From Planctomycetota bacterium (GTDB lineage Bacteria; Planctomycetota; UBA1135; UBA2386), in the NCBI GenBank assembly GCA_947501605.1, contig CANMWZ010000031.1:1-49907 (forward strand): a stretch of DNA of 49,907 bases, given 5' to 3'. Made by a program: the position numbers and the translations under genes. The notes under the pieces were generated by a model. That model saw nothing but the letters and a program-made list of their open reading frames with translations, did not search any database and was not told where the DNA came from. Of the stretch, positions 20,008 through 29,926 are shown piece by piece; position 1 is the first letter of the stretch; each line of letters starts with the position of its first letter.

Positions 20008-21000
20008 TCAGAAACGGAACTCCGGGGGCTCCGGCGCGACGACGCGCAGAGGCTGACCACTCGCGGGATGTGGCAGGGTCAGTTCGGCGGCGTGCAGCAA
20101 AAAGGCGTCGAGCCGCTTGGCGGTCGAGCCGTAGCGAACGTCGCCAACGATCGGATGGCCCAAGTGGGCCAGATGGGCCCGGATCTGATGCATGCGGCCG
20201 GTGTGCAAGACGAGCCGCAACAGGGCGCGTTCGCCGCGAATCGCCAGCACTTCGTAGTCGGTGCGCGCAGTCTGTCCGCGGCGATCGACGCGGACCTTCT
20301 GGGCATCGCGCCGCACAGCGTCGACGACAAGCAACGGCGCATCGATCGTCCCGGTCCGCGGCGAGGGAATGCCATGCACAACCGCTAGGTAGACCTTGCG
20401 CGCGGTGCCGTCGCGAAACGCGGCGGCGAGCCCACGCAACCCGTTCGGCGTCAGCCCGATCGCGACCACACCCGAGGTGCCGCGGTCGATTCGATGCGCG
20501 GGCGCGGGCGCAAAGGTCGCCGTGCGAAGCTCCCTCGCATTGCGGTCGAGCCAAGAACAGAGGTCCGCGTCGTCCTGCCCCGTCCCTGGCTGCGAAGCCA
20601 TGCCCGCGGGCTTGTCGACAACCATCACTTCGGCATCGCGATACAACACCGTGGGCGCCCGCGCCCGTCCGCTTGCGGACCTGCGATCTGCGCCCCGACG
20701 CTCGACCTCACCCTTGCCGGCACGAACCACGTCGCGCGTTGCCCCTGACCCTCCGGGCGGGTGTGGTCGGCGCTCGGCGGCGGCACGCACCAAGTCGAGG
20801 TCGCGCTCGGGCAAGCGAAAGCTGAGCCTCATGCCCGCTTCGATTCGAAGATCCGGTTCCGCCTTCTTGCCATCGACGCGGATGCTGCCGCTACGCAGCG
20901 ACTTGAAGATGACGGCCAATGGCATCGTCTTCAGCAGCTTGCGCAGGTAGCGGTCGAGTCGCTGGCCGGCATCGGGGCTTGCTACAGGCAGCTCCAACAT
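20008..21000 (-). CDS. RluA-family (RluC/D-like) pseudouridine synthase with S4 domain
   Basis: GQRLDRYL S4 domain, VDKPAG, HRIDRGTSG (catalytic Asp), KVYLAVV, TGRMHQIRAH, PIVGDVRYG, LHA. Confidence 0.95.
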   Translation of the reverse strand: MLELPVASPDAGQRLDRYLRKLLKTMPLAVIFKSLRSGSIRVDGKKAEPDLRIEAGMRLSFRLPERDLDLVRAAAERRPHPPGGSGATRDVVRAGKGEVERRGADRRSASGRARAPTVLYRDAEVMVVDKPAGMASQPGTGQDDADLCSWLDRNARELRTATFAPAPAHRIDRGTSGVVAIGLTPNGLRGLAAAFRDGTARKVYLAVVHGIPSPRTGTIDAPLLVVDAVRRDAQKVRVDRRGQTARTDYEVLAIRGERALLRLVLHTGRMHQIRAHLAHLGHPIVGDVRYGSTAKRLDAFLLHAAELTLPHPASGQPLRVVAPEPPEFRF

Positions 21001-21051
21001 GAAACCGATCATCACCGCGCGGCGAACGCACGCAACGTGGAGCAAAAGAAC

Positions 21052-21276
21052 ATGGATATCACAATCCTTCACTGCACAGCTTGAGGCTACCGGCCTCGCG
21101 CGGCGGGTCTCGCCGCGCAAATCGAATCGGAGCTCGGTCTCAAAGCCACCCTGGTCGCAGGCAACGCCGGACAATTCGACGTCCTGTGCGACGGCGCGGT
21201 CATCGCCAGCAAGAAGGGCCGCGACTGGCCCGACCCGAGGAAGGTGATGGATGCGATCAGCCTGCTGTCGAAGTAG
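21052..21276 (+). CDS. SelW/SelT/SelH (Rdx) family selenoprotein; TGA 21082-21084 read as selenocysteine
   Basis: MDITILHCTA-U-GYRPRAAGLAAQIESELGLKATLVAGNAGQFDVLCDGAVIASKKGRDWPDPRKVMDAISLLSK*: CxxU plus Rdx hallmarks GYxPRA, GxFDV, DG..SK, WPD. SECIS-like hairpin follows the TGA. Confidence 0.92.
21098..21118 (+). promoter_or_regulatory. Bacterial SECIS element
   Basis: Perfect 8-bp stem GCGCGGCG/CGCCGCGC closing GGTCT, beginning 13 nt after the in-frame TGA. Confidence 0.8.
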
Positions 21277-22033
21277 TCGACGGGCCGCGCTGCGAAGTGC
21301 CCGGCGGCCCGATCCGCGTCACCGCATGGCTGCCCAAGGAGCCGATCTCGAAGACCAGCTGGTGCTGCGCCGCAAACGCCACGGCCTTTGCTTGCACCAA
21401 GCGACCGCCGGTCAAGAGCAACTCCGCGTAGTCGGAGAAGGCGACGCGGCCAGCCGCTGGCCCGTCGGCTGGATCGGCTTGGAACAGTCCATCGACGTCC
21501 TTCACCAACCGACAATGAGCCGCCAACCGCTGCGCCAGGAACAGCGCGGTCAGGTCCGATCCACCGCGTCCGAGCAGCACCGCGTTGCCCGATCCGTCGA
21601 CGGCGACGAAGCCGGGCACGACGGCGACGCCACTGCGGCCCAAAGCCGCGAGGCAGCGAGGCAACGACACGCCGACCGGATCGGCATCGAGCGGGTCACC
21701 TTCGGCCAGTAGCTGCAGCGCGGCAGGATCGAGCACCGCGGCGTCGAGACCTTCGACCGAAAGCGCCTCCGCGAGCATGGCGGCGCATTCGCGTTCGCCC
21801 GACGCCACGCGCGCCGCCACTGCCAGCGGGGACAGCGGCGGGCTCACGTGCGCGCACTCAGCCAGCAGTGCGTCGGTCCGTCCTTGCAGGGCTGAGACTA
21901 CGGCGAGGACCGCACGCCCCGTTCGGCGAAAGCGCGCCACCTCGGTCGCGACGCCCGCGAGCGCACTCCGATTGCACAGCACCGAGCCGCCGAACTTCAG
22001 CACCGAGATCGAAGCACCGTCCACCGGGTGCAT
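21257..22033 (-). CDS. Aspartate kinase-like protein, catalytic domain only
   Basis: VLKFGGSVL, AVVSALQGRTD, VASGE, VVPGF, LLGRGGSDLTA, KDVDGLFQADP; ends without ACT domains. Confidence 0.85.
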   Translation of the reverse strand: MHPVDGASISVLKFGGSVLCNRSALAGVATEVARFRRTGRAVLAVVSALQGRTDALLAECAHVSPPLSPLAVAARVASGERECAAMLAEALSVEGLDAAVLDPAALQLLAEGDPLDADPVGVSLPRCLAALGRSGVAVVPGFVAVDGSGNAVLLGRGGSDLTALFLAQRLAAHCRLVKDVDGLFQADPADGPAAGRVAFSDYAELLLTGGRLVQAKAVAFAAQHQLVFEIGSLGSHAVTRIGPPGTSQRGPSTTSTAG

Positions 22034-22065: not shown

Positions 22066-24552
22066 TCAGCGGGCAAGGCGATCGACTGCGAGGAAGGCCA
22101 CGGCGTAGATGGCTGCCGCGCACAGCAGCACTGCGTTGAAACCGAAGTTCATCGACACGATCACCGTGGCGACCGAGCCGACGACCGTTGCCGAGCCGTT
22201 GACCGCCCAGGCCCACGGCACGAAGTGCGGGTTGGTCTTCGATAGCAATCGAACACCGTGGGCGAAGGGCACGCCGAGCAACAACGCCACGGGCGCGATC
22301 AAGACCCCGGCCACCACCGATCGAACAGCGATGGAGGTCCCGATGAACATGTCGACGATCGGCGTTCCGAGCGCCACCCACGCAACCAACATCAACAGGA
22401 TCCCCAGCGGGATCGCGCGCACGCGCGAGCGACCGCCGTCGAGCCACTTGCCCGACAGCGAACTGCCGAGGCCGGTGAAGATGAGGATCGAGAACAGCGT
22501 CACGACGATCGAGTAGAGCGGCTGCCCGAGCAACAGCGTCAACTTCTGGATCAGGGCGATCTCGATGAAGATGAAGCCCGCGCCGATGCCGGCGAAGTAG
22601 ATCAGGAACCGTCCTGAGTGCGCGCCCTTCTGCTGGGAGCGGCGGAACAGCAGCGGCACCACGATCAGCAACACCGCGATGACACTGGAGAACACCAGCT
22701 GGCCCCAGATGAACAGGGGGTTGCCCTGCGACATCGAAGTCAGCTCGTTGAGGTACTGCTTGGCTTCCGCCGGTGGCGTATCCCACCGGGTGAAGTTGAA
22801 GAAGTACGGCAGGTCGTCGGTCGTCGGCGAGATCGCGCGCGGGAAGTCGGCGATGAACTTCGCCTTGTCCTCGGTGCGCACGAAGTCCTGCACGACGCCG
22901 GCGATCTCGCGTTGCGGCAAGTAGCTGAGCTGGTGCTCGTTCTTGGTCGCGAACGACTCGATGTGCGCGACTTCCTCGGCGGTGAACTTGCCCTTCTTGA
23001 TCATCACTGCAGCGAGCTTGTCCCACGACGACGACGACGTGACGATGGCCACCGAGTCCTGGAAGTCGGCAACGCCAAGCCGGCGGAAGGCCTCGTAGAT
23101 GTTCGACAACAACCGGAGCTTCTCCATGTTGTCGCCCATGCGCGTGACCTGGATCACGCCGCCATCCGCGAGGTGCGAGTACATCTGCATCATCGCTTCG
23201 ACGGTGTACAGGTAGTTCTCAGCGAGCACGTAGGCGCCCGAAGTCAGCGCTGTCCACGTGTCGATGCCCGTCATCTGGACGATGTCGTAGCTGCCGTCAT
23301 CGCGCATCAGGGCCGAGCGCCCTTCGTCGTTGACCAGTTCGATGTTCGGGTCCTCGAGGATCCCCTTGCTGAACTCCTTGCCGACCGTGCGATGCACGTC
23401 GAGCACGCCGTAGTTGAGTTCGATGCCGCGGATCTTGCTGGCACCCGCGAGCTTGTTGGCCCAGATGTCGTTGCCGCCACCGACGCCGATGACGAACACG
23501 CGCGAGCCCTTGTCCTGCTTCATCGAGGCGGTGAGCGAGTAGAGCGAACGCGACAGCAGCCCGCGCGCCCCGGCCTTCTCGTCCGACAGGTTCGTCAAGA
23601 ACGTGCCGGCGTCGCCGTCCTGCATGATGTACTTCTGCTCGCCGAACGCCTCGCGCAGCGCCTTGGCAGCAGCAACGGGGTCGGCCGCGTGCTGGCCCTT
23701 GATCACATCCATCGCCCGCATGTCCGGCCCGGCCATCGCCAGCATGAGCCAGAGCACTTCGTCGCTCTTGCCGACGTCAATGCGGCTGTTGGTCGACCAG
23801 CGCGAGTAGATGTGCGGGACCCCGTTCGGGTTGTAGTTCGCGTTCTGCGTGAGGCGCAGAAAGCTCTTGCCCGGGATCGGCACGCTCTTGTCGAACGACG
23901 GAATCAACACGGCGCAGGTGATGCCGAGCGCCACCGCCGCAAGCCCGGAACCGCGCCGCAAACGCGCCGGCGCGACCGCCCACAGTGCTAGGAGACCGAG
24001 CACCGCGACGACCAGCAAGCAGCCGCCGGCGCCGAACGGCCACAATAGCATCGGGCAGAGGAGGCAGCCGAAGCCGGCGCCGAGCAGATCGCTGGCGTAG
24101 ACCGCGTGAATGCGGTGCGCGTAGGCCGACAAGATCAACCCGACCGCACCGCCGCCGAAAAAGAACGGGACCGCGAGCCCGAGGTTGTAGACCGCGAACT
24201 GGATGAAGTCCGAGCGCTCCTGATCGGACCACCCGAAGTTCAGTTGCTCGGGCACTGGCATCGCAATGGCGAACCACCAGGTAGCCCCGAGGGAGAGCAA
24301 GAACAGCAGCACCGAACCCCAGATCCAAACGATGGGGTTCTTGCGCCACTTCTCCTCGAGAATGGTCAGCACCGTGCCGCTCGCCCCGATCCCCAGCAGG
24401 CTGTTGCTGATGATCAGGAAGCTGAAGTGGAAGTGCAGTCGCAGCGCGCAGACTCGCGTCAGCAGCACCTGGAAGGTCAGCAACGCCGCCGAGAGGACGG
24501 CGATGCCGATGTAGACACCCAGGGGCACCTTGCGATCGGGAGAATCTTGCAT
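22066..24552 (-). CDS. Polytopic membrane protein with a central spermidine-synthase-like SAM-binding domain
   Basis: N-terminal TM bundle (YASDLLGAG), VIGVGGGNDI, GIELN, DEGRS, YDIVQ, LYTVEA, PTTDDLPYF, C-terminal TM bundle (WAWAVNG). Confidence 0.85.
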   Translation of the reverse strand: MQDSPDRKVPLGVYIGIAVLSAALLTFQVLLTRVCALRLHFHFSFLIISNSLLGIGASGTVLTILEEKWRKNPIVWIWGSVLLFLLSLGATWWFAIAMPVPEQLNFGWSDQERSDFIQFAVYNLGLAVPFFFGGGAVGLILSAYAHRIHAVYASDLLGAGFGCLLCPMLLWPFGAGGCLLVVAVLGLLALWAVAPARLRRGSGLAAVALGITCAVLIPSFDKSVPIPGKSFLRLTQNANYNPNGVPHIYSRWSTNSRIDVGKSDEVLWLMLAMAGPDMRAMDVIKGQHAADPVAAAKALREAFGEQKYIMQDGDAGTFLTNLSDEKAGARGLLSRSLYSLTASMKQDKGSRVFVIGVGGGNDIWANKLAGASKIRGIELNYGVLDVHRTVGKEFSKGILEDPNIELVNDEGRSALMRDDGSYDIVQMTGIDTWTALTSGAYVLAENYLYTVEAMMQMYSHLADGGVIQVTRMGDNMEKLRLLSNIYEAFRRLGVADFQDSVAIVTSSSSWDKLAAVMIKKGKFTAEEVAHIESFATKNEHQLSYLPQREIAGVVQDFVRTEDKAKFIADFPRAISPTTDDLPYFFNFTRWDTPPAEAKQYLNELTSMSQGNPLFIWGQLVFSSVIAVLLIVVPLLFRRSQQKGAHSGRFLIYFAGIGAGFIFIEIALIQKLTLLLGQPLYSIVVTLFSILIFTGLGSSLSGKWLDGGRSRVRAIPLGILLMLVAWVALGTPIVDMFIGTSIAVRSVVAGVLIAPVALLLGVPFAHGVRLLSKTNPHFVPWAWAVNGSATVVGSVATVIVSMNFGFNAVLLCAAAIYAVAFLAVDRLAR

Positions 24553-24828
24553 GAACAGTGCAGCAACGAGGAAACGAGCGGGCGAACGATAGCCAGCCCC
24601 TGATCGGGAGGAACGGAAATGAACTCGGGCCTGCGTCCGAGCCATGCCACGCGTCAGAGACCGGTCCGCGCGCCTTCGTTGGTCGACGCTTTCTCCCACG
24701 ACACCGAAGTCGGCGTGACGGCTAGGGCGACACCGGGGTCGCGAGTATCCGCATCGACCGATGGCGACGAGTTCTTGGCGAAGACCCCGCAGTCCGCTAG
24801 CGTTCTCGCCGCATCGAATGCCTCGCAC

Positions 24829-24915
24829 GCGAGAGTGGCGGAATTGGCAGACGCACAGGTTTTAGGTACCTGCGGGCGCAAGCCCTTCAGGGTTCAAGTC
24901 CCTGCTCTCGCACCA
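24829..24915 (+). tRNA. tRNA-Leu(TAG)
   Basis: Acceptor stem GCGAGAG/CTCTCGC + A + CCA; D-arm GGAATTGGCAGAC; anticodon arm CAGGT-TT-TAG-GT-ACCTG; long variable arm; T-loop GTTCAAGTC. Confidence 0.97.
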
Positions 24916-24959: not shown

Positions 24960-25156
24960 CTGTCTTGCGCGCGGGCTCGTCTGGTTGGTGGCCTGGGAAC
25001 CCTGACAGTCGCTGTCAAGGTCCCACGACCCAGTCGACACGAGGCCCGACGATGGACACGAATCCGATCCAGCCCGGCGAGCAGTTCACCGGCGCACGCG
25101 AGCGGCAAACGAGCGGCCGCCGCTCGTCATCGCTCGCTGCAGTTCCGTCCAGCGGT

Positions 25157-25492
25157 ATGAACCGCAGCGAGAGCAACACGAAGAAGCCGCGCCTTCCCAA
25201 GATGGGGTGCCACAGCAGCGGCCAGGCCCGCGTCACTCCGAACGGCACGGTGCATTACCTCGGCGCCTTCGGCAGCCCGGAAGCCCACCAACGCTACGCA
25301 GAACTCATTCAGAAGTGGCTGAGCGGCGGAGGCCGACCGCCCGCAGAACTCCCCCACGCGAGCCAGGTAGTCCTGAACGTCCGCGACCTGTTCGCGCGCT
25401 ACCGCGAGTGAGTCGTCGCCACGGGGCGCCACCTCAAGAACGGCGCACCACGGCAAGAGCATCCGCTACCCGATCCCGCCGGCGGCAGTTGA
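25157..25492 (+). pseudogene. N-terminal fragment of a tyrosine recombinase/integrase
   Basis: PKMGCHSSGQARVTPNGTVHYLGAFGSPEAHQRYAELIQKWL resembles the N-terminus of planctomycete tRNA-associated integrases; internal TGA at 25409; no catalytic domain follows. Confidence 0.75.
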
Positions 25493-27634: not shown

Positions 27635-29926
27635 TCACTGCGCGTAGTACTCGGGCAGGCAGTAGTGCCACTTGTCCCAGCGACGCGACCCAAGAGCACC
27701 GCTGCGCAGCAGCGTTCCGTAGTTGAGCGACTTGGTCCGCACCGTGCCGTTGCCCGTATGGTCGGCCAGCAGAAACAGCCCAGTCGTCAAGAACGTGTGG
27801 GCGCCGCCGAGCGGGCCATCCCCGAAGCGAATGCCATACTGCGAGTCCCAGAAGTTGGCCGGGACCGGCGTGCTGTTGTAGGTCGTCGCCACGTAGTAGC
27901 GCAGGCCATTGCTCACGAACCCAAAGGTCGTGTCCTGGTAGTTGCGCACCCACGAGTAGTCAACCGTGGTCGCGACGTCCTCGCAGATCTGCAGCAGCAG
28001 TGGATCGGCAAAGTGACGGTACGCGCCCAGATACCCGAACAGCACGGCGCCGTGCTGCCACGGCATGAAGAACTCATGCGGCATCGGCCAGTTGGTGCCA
28101 GGGTAGTTGCTCTGGAAGCCCATCGCCTTGCTGGGATGGTTCTTCTTGCGCTGCAGCTCGACGACGTTGCGAACGCGATTCATCGCGTAGTCCTTCAGCG
28201 CCTGGTCGCCAGTCGCGAGGTAGCACTGCGTGAATCCCTGCATGACCCAGCCCTCGGCGCGAACCGCCTGGACGAAACGGGTGTTGTAGGTCGCGATCCG
28301 CATCAGCGACTTCAGGCTCTGGCCGAGCTGGCGCAGCTCCTCCTGGGCCCAACAGTCGCCGCTGATCGTCCAGTAGTCGAACAGCAGATCCGTGGACCAG
28401 TGCTCGTGATCAAAATGCTCCCAACCATGGCCACGAGCCGAACCACCCTGCACGCGCGTACGGCAGGCAGTGAAGGGATCCGCGGCATAGAGACCGCGAC
28501 GACCGAGCGACTCGTTCGACAGATCGCGCGACCCGGGGTAGATCGGCACTCCATCCCACAAGAACAGCGGCTGCGTGTCTCCGACCTGAAGACCATAAAG
28601 GTGGTACGGACGAGCTGCCTGGATCCAGGCCCTCTGTTCGAGTGCCGTGATGAGTCGATGATGACCAGCCTGAACGGCATGAGCGAGTTCAGGACTGAGA
28701 GGATGGTTGCGCGGCGTACCCGTGGTGCCTGTCACAACCGCATCGCCACGCGAACCCCACGTGCCAAACCAGCCACCATTCAGGAATGACTGGTACTCAC
28801 CTTCCGCACGCGCCCAGGAGTCGCTCGGACCAGCAAGCGGGCCACCAATCAGGCCAAGACTCGCGGTCGTGTAGCAGCTCGGCTGCGTCGGCAGCGGAAA
28901 GTACGGGTTGCTGGTCATCGCCTGCGTGACGGCTGTCCAACGACTCGCGTCGGTCGGGGCCGCCGCCGGATGAATGACCGGCAGGACGAATCGATAGCGG
29001 CGCGTTTGCGCGTCACCCATCCAGTCGTTGGTCATGACGCGGTAGGCACTGAGCCCGCCGCCAGCGCCAACAGGACCACTGATCCCGTTCTCGCCAGCGC
29101 GGTACGGATAGCACAGCAGACCCGTGCCACCGACGAGGAAGCTCGCTTCGTTGACGTCGACGCCACCGAGAACGTAGAGGTTGCGATTGGAGGAGCCTGC
29201 GGGGTTGTCGCTACCGAGGTAGTCGTTACCGAGCACCCAGTCGACCTGCAGGACGGGCACATCGCGGTACTCCGTGACGTAGAACGTCGACGTCAGGTAG
29301 TCCCGATTGATGCCTGCACCGGTCGCCAGATGATAGGCACGATGACGACGCACGCGGACCAGCGGCGTCTCCGCGAGCACTTCGCCGCTGCCGGTGGCAA
29401 AGCCCCGATAGCTGCGCTGGAAGGTGTCCTTGACCTCGGCACCGAACTGGAACGTCGACTCGAGGCTCGAGACCCACGAGTTCGGCTGGAACGCGCCGGT
29501 GAGCGGTTGCATGCCACCCACGATCTCGTAGGTGCGAACCGTGTTGGCCGGGATCGTCGCCGTGAACTGCGCCTGCGCGATCCGGATCGAGTTGTCGGGC
29601 CAGCGCTGCAGCACGCGCCACGCGGTCTGGAACCCGCTGACTCCCAGCGCGGCCGTGCTCTGATGATGACCGTAGGGCAGCGGCACCGAGGCGAGGACGG
29701 TCTCCGTCCGCTCCACTTGGCTGTCGTTGTTGACCGTGAACTGCGGCGCCCAACCGAGCGGTACGCCAGGGCCGCCAGGGCCAGAACCACCGCCGCCACC
29801 ACCCGGATTGCCACCGGTGTTGCCCGCGGCCGCGCCGCCAGCGCCGCAACTGGAAGCGGCTACACAAGCGGCCAGGAGCGTCCACTTGGACGCGCGACCC
29901 GCAGAAGAAGGACAAAGACCGGTCAT
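27635..29926 (-). CDS. Large secreted protein or lipoprotein, YetA/exo-rhamnogalacturonan lyase-like
   Basis: Signal with Cys (VAASSC), Gly linker, VPLPYG..VLQRWPDNSIR N-domain, HFDHEHW..DYWTISGD, RAEGW, FMPWQHG typical of alpha/alpha toroids. Function uncertain. Confidence 0.7.
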   Translation of the reverse strand: MTGLCPSSAGRASKWTLLAACVAASSCGAGGAAAGNTGGNPGGGGGGSGPGGPGVPLGWAPQFTVNNDSQVERTETVLASVPLPYGHHQSTAALGVSGFQTAWRVLQRWPDNSIRIAQAQFTATIPANTVRTYEIVGGMQPLTGAFQPNSWVSSLESTFQFGAEVKDTFQRSYRGFATGSGEVLAETPLVRVRRHRAYHLATGAGINRDYLTSTFYVTEYRDVPVLQVDWVLGNDYLGSDNPAGSSNRNLYVLGGVDVNEASFLVGGTGLLCYPYRAGENGISGPVGAGGGLSAYRVMTNDWMGDAQTRRYRFVLPVIHPAAAPTDASRWTAVTQAMTSNPYFPLPTQPSCYTTASLGLIGGPLAGPSDSWARAEGEYQSFLNGGWFGTWGSRGDAVVTGTTGTPRNHPLSPELAHAVQAGHHRLITALEQRAWIQAARPYHLYGLQVGDTQPLFLWDGVPIYPGSRDLSNESLGRRGLYAADPFTACRTRVQGGSARGHGWEHFDHEHWSTDLLFDYWTISGDCWAQEELRQLGQSLKSLMRIATYNTRFVQAVRAEGWVMQGFTQCYLATGDQALKDYAMNRVRNVVELQRKKNHPSKAMGFQSNYPGTNWPMPHEFFMPWQHGAVLFGYLGAYRHFADPLLLQICEDVATTVDYSWVRNYQDTTFGFVSNGLRYYVATTYNSTPVPANFWDSQYGIRFGDGPLGGAHTFLTTGLFLLADHTGNGTVRTKSLNYGTLLRSGALGSRRWDKWHYCLPEYYAQ

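Follow-up and report, generated by a model that had tools for sequence, protein, structure and literature searches.

We analysed a window of 49,907 nucleotides, spanning positions 1 to 49,907 of contig CANMWZ010000031.1 from a Planctomycetota bacterium. On its plus strand, frame, profiles and a structural model together mark positions 21052..21276 as the coding sequence of a predicted SelW-like/Rdx-family selenoprotein of 74 amino acids with a CxxU motif (C8-T-A-U11). The frame opens with an ATG at 21052-21054, runs through ten codons to C-T-A, meets an in-frame TGA at 21082-21084 (the putative Sec codon, U11) and continues for 63 open codons to a TAG at 21274-21276, in agreement with the initial annotation; when TGA is translated as U, the product reads MDITILHCTAUGYRPRAAGL...SK. 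That annotation had also pointed out that the TGA breaks the ORF track and would hide the gene from standard annotation. Indeed, no table-11 open reading frame of at least 60 amino acids is listed in this frame 3' of the TGA, thus ordinary gene callers would miss it.

A possible but weak Shine-Dalgarno word, GGAG, lies 9 nt 5' of the ATG (21039..21042, plus strand), and an SD-like word occurs in only two of the five genes of the genus. No sigma-70-type promoter was found within 20900-21450, and, on the minus strand, a weak hairpin resembling a terminator (21231-21216) falls inside the gene (2 sites versus 0.5 +/- 0.8 expected). The end of one RNA contig, X12, coincides exactly with 21052, though this comes from a single study and contigs show neither starts nor strand. 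Separately, a TAnnnT word 6-9 nt 5' of the start was seen in seven of 31 Rdx genes (L021, L036, L039, L040, L041, L051 and L052), where it would fit leaderless transcripts; it is absent at this distance upstream of the window's gene and of its congeners' copies.

The two flanking genes both lie on the minus strand. The first, at 20008..21000, is a divergent RluA-family pseudouridine synthase (Pfam PseudoU_synth_2), and its divergence was found again in 4/4 congeners. The 51-nt gap originally given between this gene and the Rdx gene is less settled: it follows from an ATG at 21000, and an in-frame ATG at 21012, kept in 5/5 genomes of the genus examined, would leave 39 nt. Outside the genus, the arrangement recurs in one other genus. 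Among the 31 aligned genes only 6 loci show it, and a functional link of Rdx to RluA or to the aspartate pathway was dropped in favour of local synteny. The second neighbour, at 21257..22033, is a convergent, stand-alone amino-acid-kinase ORF (aspartokinase-like; Pfam AA_kinase) with an inferred ATG start at 22033. Its end overlaps the Rdx 3' end by 20 nt, as first described, and three independent DNA contigs span the junction, which argues against a misassembly. The overlap is nevertheless particular to this species and incidental rather than conserved: in 4/4 congeners an asd-family gene (PF02774) sits between Rdx and the kinase. In the host genome (G000), the best PF02774 match lies on another contig (G000:C4:142328-142894). 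The asd-family gene was probably lost or relocated in the window's species, the kinase ORF now stopping inside the Rdx 3' end. The neighbouring genes offer no clue to the function of the Rdx gene. Farther along the window, two long minus-strand ORFs had no Pfam match at E<=0.001, one of 920 amino acids resembling a membrane protein (22066-24828) and one of 763 amino acids (27635-29926). A tRNA-Leu gene (24829-24915, plus strand) is followed by an ORF resembling, by eye, an integrase N-terminal fragment (24965-25411, plus strand), possibly an island boundary.

Membership of the Rdx family was assessed with profiles, all scores being computed with C standing in for U. The product scored 43.7 bits against Pfam Rdx (PF10262; cut-off 22.6, E=3.2e-11), with a match that spans the TGA, and 35.8 against TIGR02174 CXXU_selWTH, a margin of just 1.6 bits over the cut-off of 34.2. 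The equivalog model NF041051 SelTWH_Campy was not reached (55.2 for a cut-off of 88 bits), and we do not place the product there. In sequence alignments, U11 stands opposite the second Cys of the CxxC motif of 3dex, 2oka and 2fa8, the position initially proposed for it. An AlphaFold model built from a 31-sequence alignment (mean pLDDT 92.4) has the order beta-alpha-beta-beta-beta-alpha, with C8 and U11 between strand E3-7 and helix H14-28. When this model was compared with 48,161 chains, the best match was 2fa8 (Z 12.5, rmsd 1.8, 74 residues aligned), followed by MIEN1 (Z 9.4) and mouse SelW (Z 8.9), and then by thioredoxin-fold and other chains with Z <=8.2. Both cut-offs and these SelW-type matches bear out the suggestion of a complete 74-residue Rdx-fold protein. 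The predicted protein thus shares its fold, over all 74 residues, with Agrobacterium Atu0228 (2fa8), human MIEN1 (2ljk) and mouse SelW (2npb), at a structural identity to solved homologs of 22-27%; in contrast to it, the bacterial homologs 2fa8, SAV_2001 (3dex), 2oka and 2obk use Cys and are 103-108 amino acids long. C8, U11 and P60 are invariant in 31/31 aligned Rdx genes. G40 is also invariant, and F42 and V44 are at least 90% conserved; these three residues match the G-x-F-x-V stretch that we take to be a SelW/Rdx family motif. P60 presumably occupies the position of the substrate-side proline of thioredoxin-fold proteins. Residues of the C8/U11/P60 type on a thioredoxin-like fold are typical of dithiol-type catalysts.

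The TGA itself proved to be a constant feature of these genes. A protein query returned 57 matches in 40/61 genomes, every one of which contains TGA (a single TGA in 56 matches, two in the remaining one), and the Pfam Rdx profile returned 57 matches in 41/61 genomes, in each of which TGA occurs exactly once. These matches belong to several families and reach down to about 31% identity. In alignment A1, made of the 30 loci returned by the protein-query search plus the second copy of the host genome, the TGA occupies the same column in 31/31 genes. Moreover, 3' of the TGA, differences from the four congeners fall mostly at third codon positions (26-31, versus 10-15 at positions 1 and 2), the mark of a downstream frame under purifying selection. 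Contigs from 4/4 DNA runs, of four studies, cover the TGA at 21082 with no difference at the codon, which argues that it is not an assembly error. Two of the four RNA runs also have contigs reaching the TGA, both without a difference there, and these contigs, which show neither strand nor level, could come from the convergent neighbour. Public catalogues contain many CxxC homologs (among the 150 best representatives, 89 carry CxxC, 42 CxxW, 12 no motif and 7 another form), and one might see in the TGA a nonsense mutation or a sequencing error that turned a CxxC Rdx gene into a pseudogene; we give this reading practically no credence and regard it as disproved by the presence of TGA in 57/57 matches and 41 genomes, besides the selected downstream frame, the identical codon in independent runs and a conserved hairpin behind it.

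This hairpin, which the initial annotation did not mention, is a predicted bacterial SECIS at 21098..21118 on the plus strand, with an 8-bp stem (21098-21105/21111-21118) and a GGUCU apical loop (21106-21110), recognised by folding, covariation and RNAalifold. It begins 14 nt after the UGA, and the 59-nt stretch folds with a z of -2.5. Across the 31 genes, 87.9% of stem cells can pair, versus 71.0% in shuffled alignments and 31-51% in slid registers, and RNAalifold recovered the same stem unaided. The covariation score was 0.373 (shuffled 0.108 +/- 0.022; slid registers at most 0.086), a value inflated by kinship in that the exchange of G-C and C-G pairs between columns 24 and 30 mostly follows a split into two paralog clades; at columns 21/33, four types of pair occur. 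The hairpin shows most clearly in the restriction of the loop codon, which is GGT in 20 genes and AGT in 11. Genome-wide in the host, GGT makes up 17.4% of Gly codons and AGT 8.5% of Ser codons, and elsewhere in the same Rdx genes GGT accounts for 32/262 Gly codons. G26 and T27 of the alignment, within the loop, are invariant. Such a hairpin stands behind only 157/89,587 TGA triplets of the host genome (0.18%). Synonymous differences were counted in 15/66 stem-loop codons, 133/374 downstream codons and 15/68 codons at positions 2-10; the stem-loop rate is below the downstream one but no lower than that of codons 2-10, so this test does not single out the hairpin. An Rfam search of 20800-21500, hairpin included, gave no match at E<=1. 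Taken as predicted, the SECIS lends independent support to the Sec reading.

Decoding UGA as Sec had been said to require SelA, SelB, SelC and SelD, and the search of the host genome (4.65 Mb, 66% GC, 91% complete) found the whole set. selA lies on contig C4 (391 bits), directly followed by selD (348 bits), which has one in-frame TGA of its own (G-S-G-U); selB is on contig C2 (335 bits, 578/581 profile positions) and tRNA-SeC, with anticodon tca (UCA), is on contig C1. A genome-wide reading of TGA as Trp or Gly (code 4 or 25) would instead yield a CxxW or CxxG protein, and CxxW versions are plentiful in the catalogues (the 42 of the best 150 given above, and 47/120 listed homologs). However, tRNA-SeC is the only one of 46 tRNAs with a UCA anticodon and prfB (RF2) is above its profile cut-off, therefore TGA is a normal stop elsewhere in this genome. 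Furthermore, the Rdx gene of 4/4 congeners stops with TGA at the very codon where the window's gene has TAG. A catalogue entry 72% identical to the product, P0153, shows W both at position 11 and as its last residue, where the congeners have their TGA stop; this pattern suggests that the gene caller applied code 4. RF2 and the TGA/TAG stop alignment refute the reassigned-code reading, whose probability we consider negligible. The share of TGA among long-ORF stops (83%) is circular as a test of the code, since the ORFs were cut under table 11.

With the TGA conserved, the machinery complete and a SECIS-like hairpin in place, the recoding of UGA as Sec that had been put forward for this gene is supported; of the two outcomes named at the outset as speaking against it, a genome without Sec machinery and close orthologs with TGC/TGT, neither was seen. 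We conclude that the gene is intact and that its UGA very likely encodes selenocysteine. Sec insertion at codon 11, taken on its own, we hold to be close to certain. Our overall reading, in which the UGA is decoded as Sec through the SECIS and the SelW/Rdx protein is a predicted thiol/selenol oxidoreductase of the cytoplasm, we consider highly probable, and the oxidoreductase role itself, suggested by the modelled fold, seems a good bet once Sec insertion is granted.

In bacterial Sec decoding, SelB carrying Sec-tRNA binds the hairpin loop and inserts Sec in competition with RF2. The analysis itself establishes the reading frame, its family assignment, the conservation of both TGA and hairpin, and the presence of selA/selB/selC/selD. 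By analogy to established bacterial Sec biology, SelD would make selenophosphate, SelA would turn Ser-tRNA(Sec) into Sec-tRNA(Sec), and SelB would bind the hairpin loop and bring Sec to codon 11; under selenium shortage, RF2 would instead end Rdx translation after 10 residues. As the family and the modelled fold suggest, U11, placed where helix 1 begins, would then attack an oxidised cysteine or a disulfide of a partner, C8 would resolve the adduct to give a Se-S bond, and this bond may be re-reduced by a cellular thiol or a thioredoxin-type system. In the model, the product begins directly with strand 1, thus lacks a signal peptide, and is probably cytoplasmic.

The Rdx proteins themselves fall into two groups. 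In a tree of 31 sequences, with a midpoint root only, two clades of 19 and 12 members were separated with support 99/97. The larger clade holds the window's gene and shows U-G-Y/F in 18/19 members; the smaller is characterised by U-N-Y/F and, as tree and alignment show, holds the second Rdx paralog of the host (L021; G000:C7:58713-58913, minus strand), with C-T-V-U and the same SECIS hairpin. Against PF10262, the window's gene scores 43.7 versus 65.4 bits for this other copy. An insert of 8 residues before a W-P motif, mostly amphipathic and mostly of the L-x-K-L-L-G-G type, is present in 14/14 sampled clade members outside the genus (L028-L039, L041 and L042) and missing from all five genes of the window's genus. 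The catalogues also contain Cys forms that carry a comparable insert (P0014, P0017). These features raise a further alternative, in which Sec is inserted but the protein serves as a redox-switched adaptor or as a selenium or metal sensor that binds a partner according to its CxxU state, rather than as a turnover oxidoreductase. The function of SelW-like proteins is called unclear in a survey (PMC1088965), the genomes hold two well-supported paralog clades, and the insert suggests a distinct partner or membrane surface. This adaptor or sensor role seems unlikely to us, though it is the strongest of the alternatives: the thioredoxin-like fold carries an invariant C8, U11 and P60, and no gene of the window's genus has the insert. 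We retain the oxidoreductase as the preferred prediction.

SelW-like proteins have long been known in bacteria. They were reported as the most abundant selenoprotein family in Sargasso Sea data, with 48 genes (PMC1088965, 2005), and a second study lists 10 cases from sequenced bacteria (PMC1794560, 2006). The window's gene resembles these proteins (PMC1088965, PMC1794560) in its N-terminal CxxU and its length of about 75 amino acids. The bacterial SECIS has been described as immediately 3' of the UGA, with a small apical loop containing G (PMC1088965), and the predicted hairpin of the window follows the same plan. Unlike the known cases, the gene belongs to a diverged clade (C-x-x-U-G-Y/F and W-P-D versus C-x-x-U-N-Y and F-P), and its host is from an uncultured Planctomycetota lineage. 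Sec machinery and putative selenoproteins were reported in Planctomycetes in 2016 (PMC4807772), as here, but in strains from red-alga blades, a different lineage; the main text of that paper does not contain the term SelW, and its supplementary Table S9 could list one. In a literature collection with few subscription journals, no paper was found joining selenoproteins, Planctomycetes and Rdx, nor one on the Rdx family among prokaryotic selenoproteins. The gene is thus a well-supported member of a family known in bacteria since 2005, and what it exposes is an annotation gap, not new biology.

This gap is apparent in the catalogues. In a set of 5.8 billion proteins, a single-sequence search gave 0 matches at E<=0.001 and an alignment search gave 144, hence the first result is a matter of sensitivity, not novelty. 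Among 120 listed homologs, 56 have no N-terminal Cys motif, 13 have CxxC and 4 another form, the others being the CxxW entries already counted. Two entries named 'Rdx family protein [Planctomycetota bacterium]', P0202 and P0229, are both truncated before the CxxU. The catalogues therefore hide the family, as the CxxU position is missing or given as Trp in many of the listed homologs.

Sec use extends well beyond this genome. selB was found in 58/61 genomes searched, the three misses being in genomes 65, 81 and 92% complete. The runs that carry this DNA come from lake water and freshwater sediment. Throughout this freshwater lineage of Planctomycetota, Sec is used consistently and the SECIS elements share an N-G-U loop. 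A bolder proposal is that the gene marks a whole uncultured Planctomycetota order with near-universal Sec use, as the selB count would suggest, and an overlooked selenoproteome including undescribed families, its clade being a functionally separate second Rdx; we offer this tentatively, at somewhat less than an even chance. If the second-Rdx part were true, the 8-residue insert, lost in the window's genus, would target another partner.

For other selenoproteins of the host, a loose genome-wide screen for TGA readthrough let through 100 TAG sites beside its 62 TGA sites, and it is best used as a list of leads with many false positives rather than as a count of the selenoproteome. One lead, on contig C10, was rejected: it looks like a tyrosine-autokinase gene followed by an in-frame second ORF. 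The N-G-U loop SECIS served as a cheap filter for further selenoproteins, and two candidates without a family model were found with it. The first (G000:C5, TGA +35864; L064:1044-2381, plus strand) is an FG-GAP-repeat protein of 446 amino acids with an N-W-U-C motif and a signal-peptide-like start, which is probably secreted. It has one TGA in 27/27 matches, in 20/41 genomes, and the hairpin after the TGA is nearly invariant at the DNA level in the 12 loci read. It gave no NCBIfam match at E<=0.01, and a search of the same literature collection for bacterial FG-GAP selenoproteins gave only mammalian papers, irrelevant by title and abstract. The second (G000:C7, TGA -106263; L067:942-1658, minus strand) is a helical protein of about 238 amino acids with P-S-Q-U-E-G-C near its C terminus and no Pfam or NCBIfam match. 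Its TGA is present in 17/19 matches, in 19/41 genomes; the one stop-free match read, in G040, has Cys at the U position, and a GGUC-loop hairpin was seen in most of 11 of 12 loci read. Neither protein has a selenoprotein model in Pfam or NCBIfam 20.0, and they are possibly undescribed selenoprotein families. N-G-U loop hairpins also accompany three thioredoxin-fold ORFs with U-x-x-C (G000:C1 -343603, C32 -8515 and C19 -54980) and an ORF at G000:C1 +23047 whose match to the zinc-ribbon (seleno)protein DG model stayed under the cut-off.
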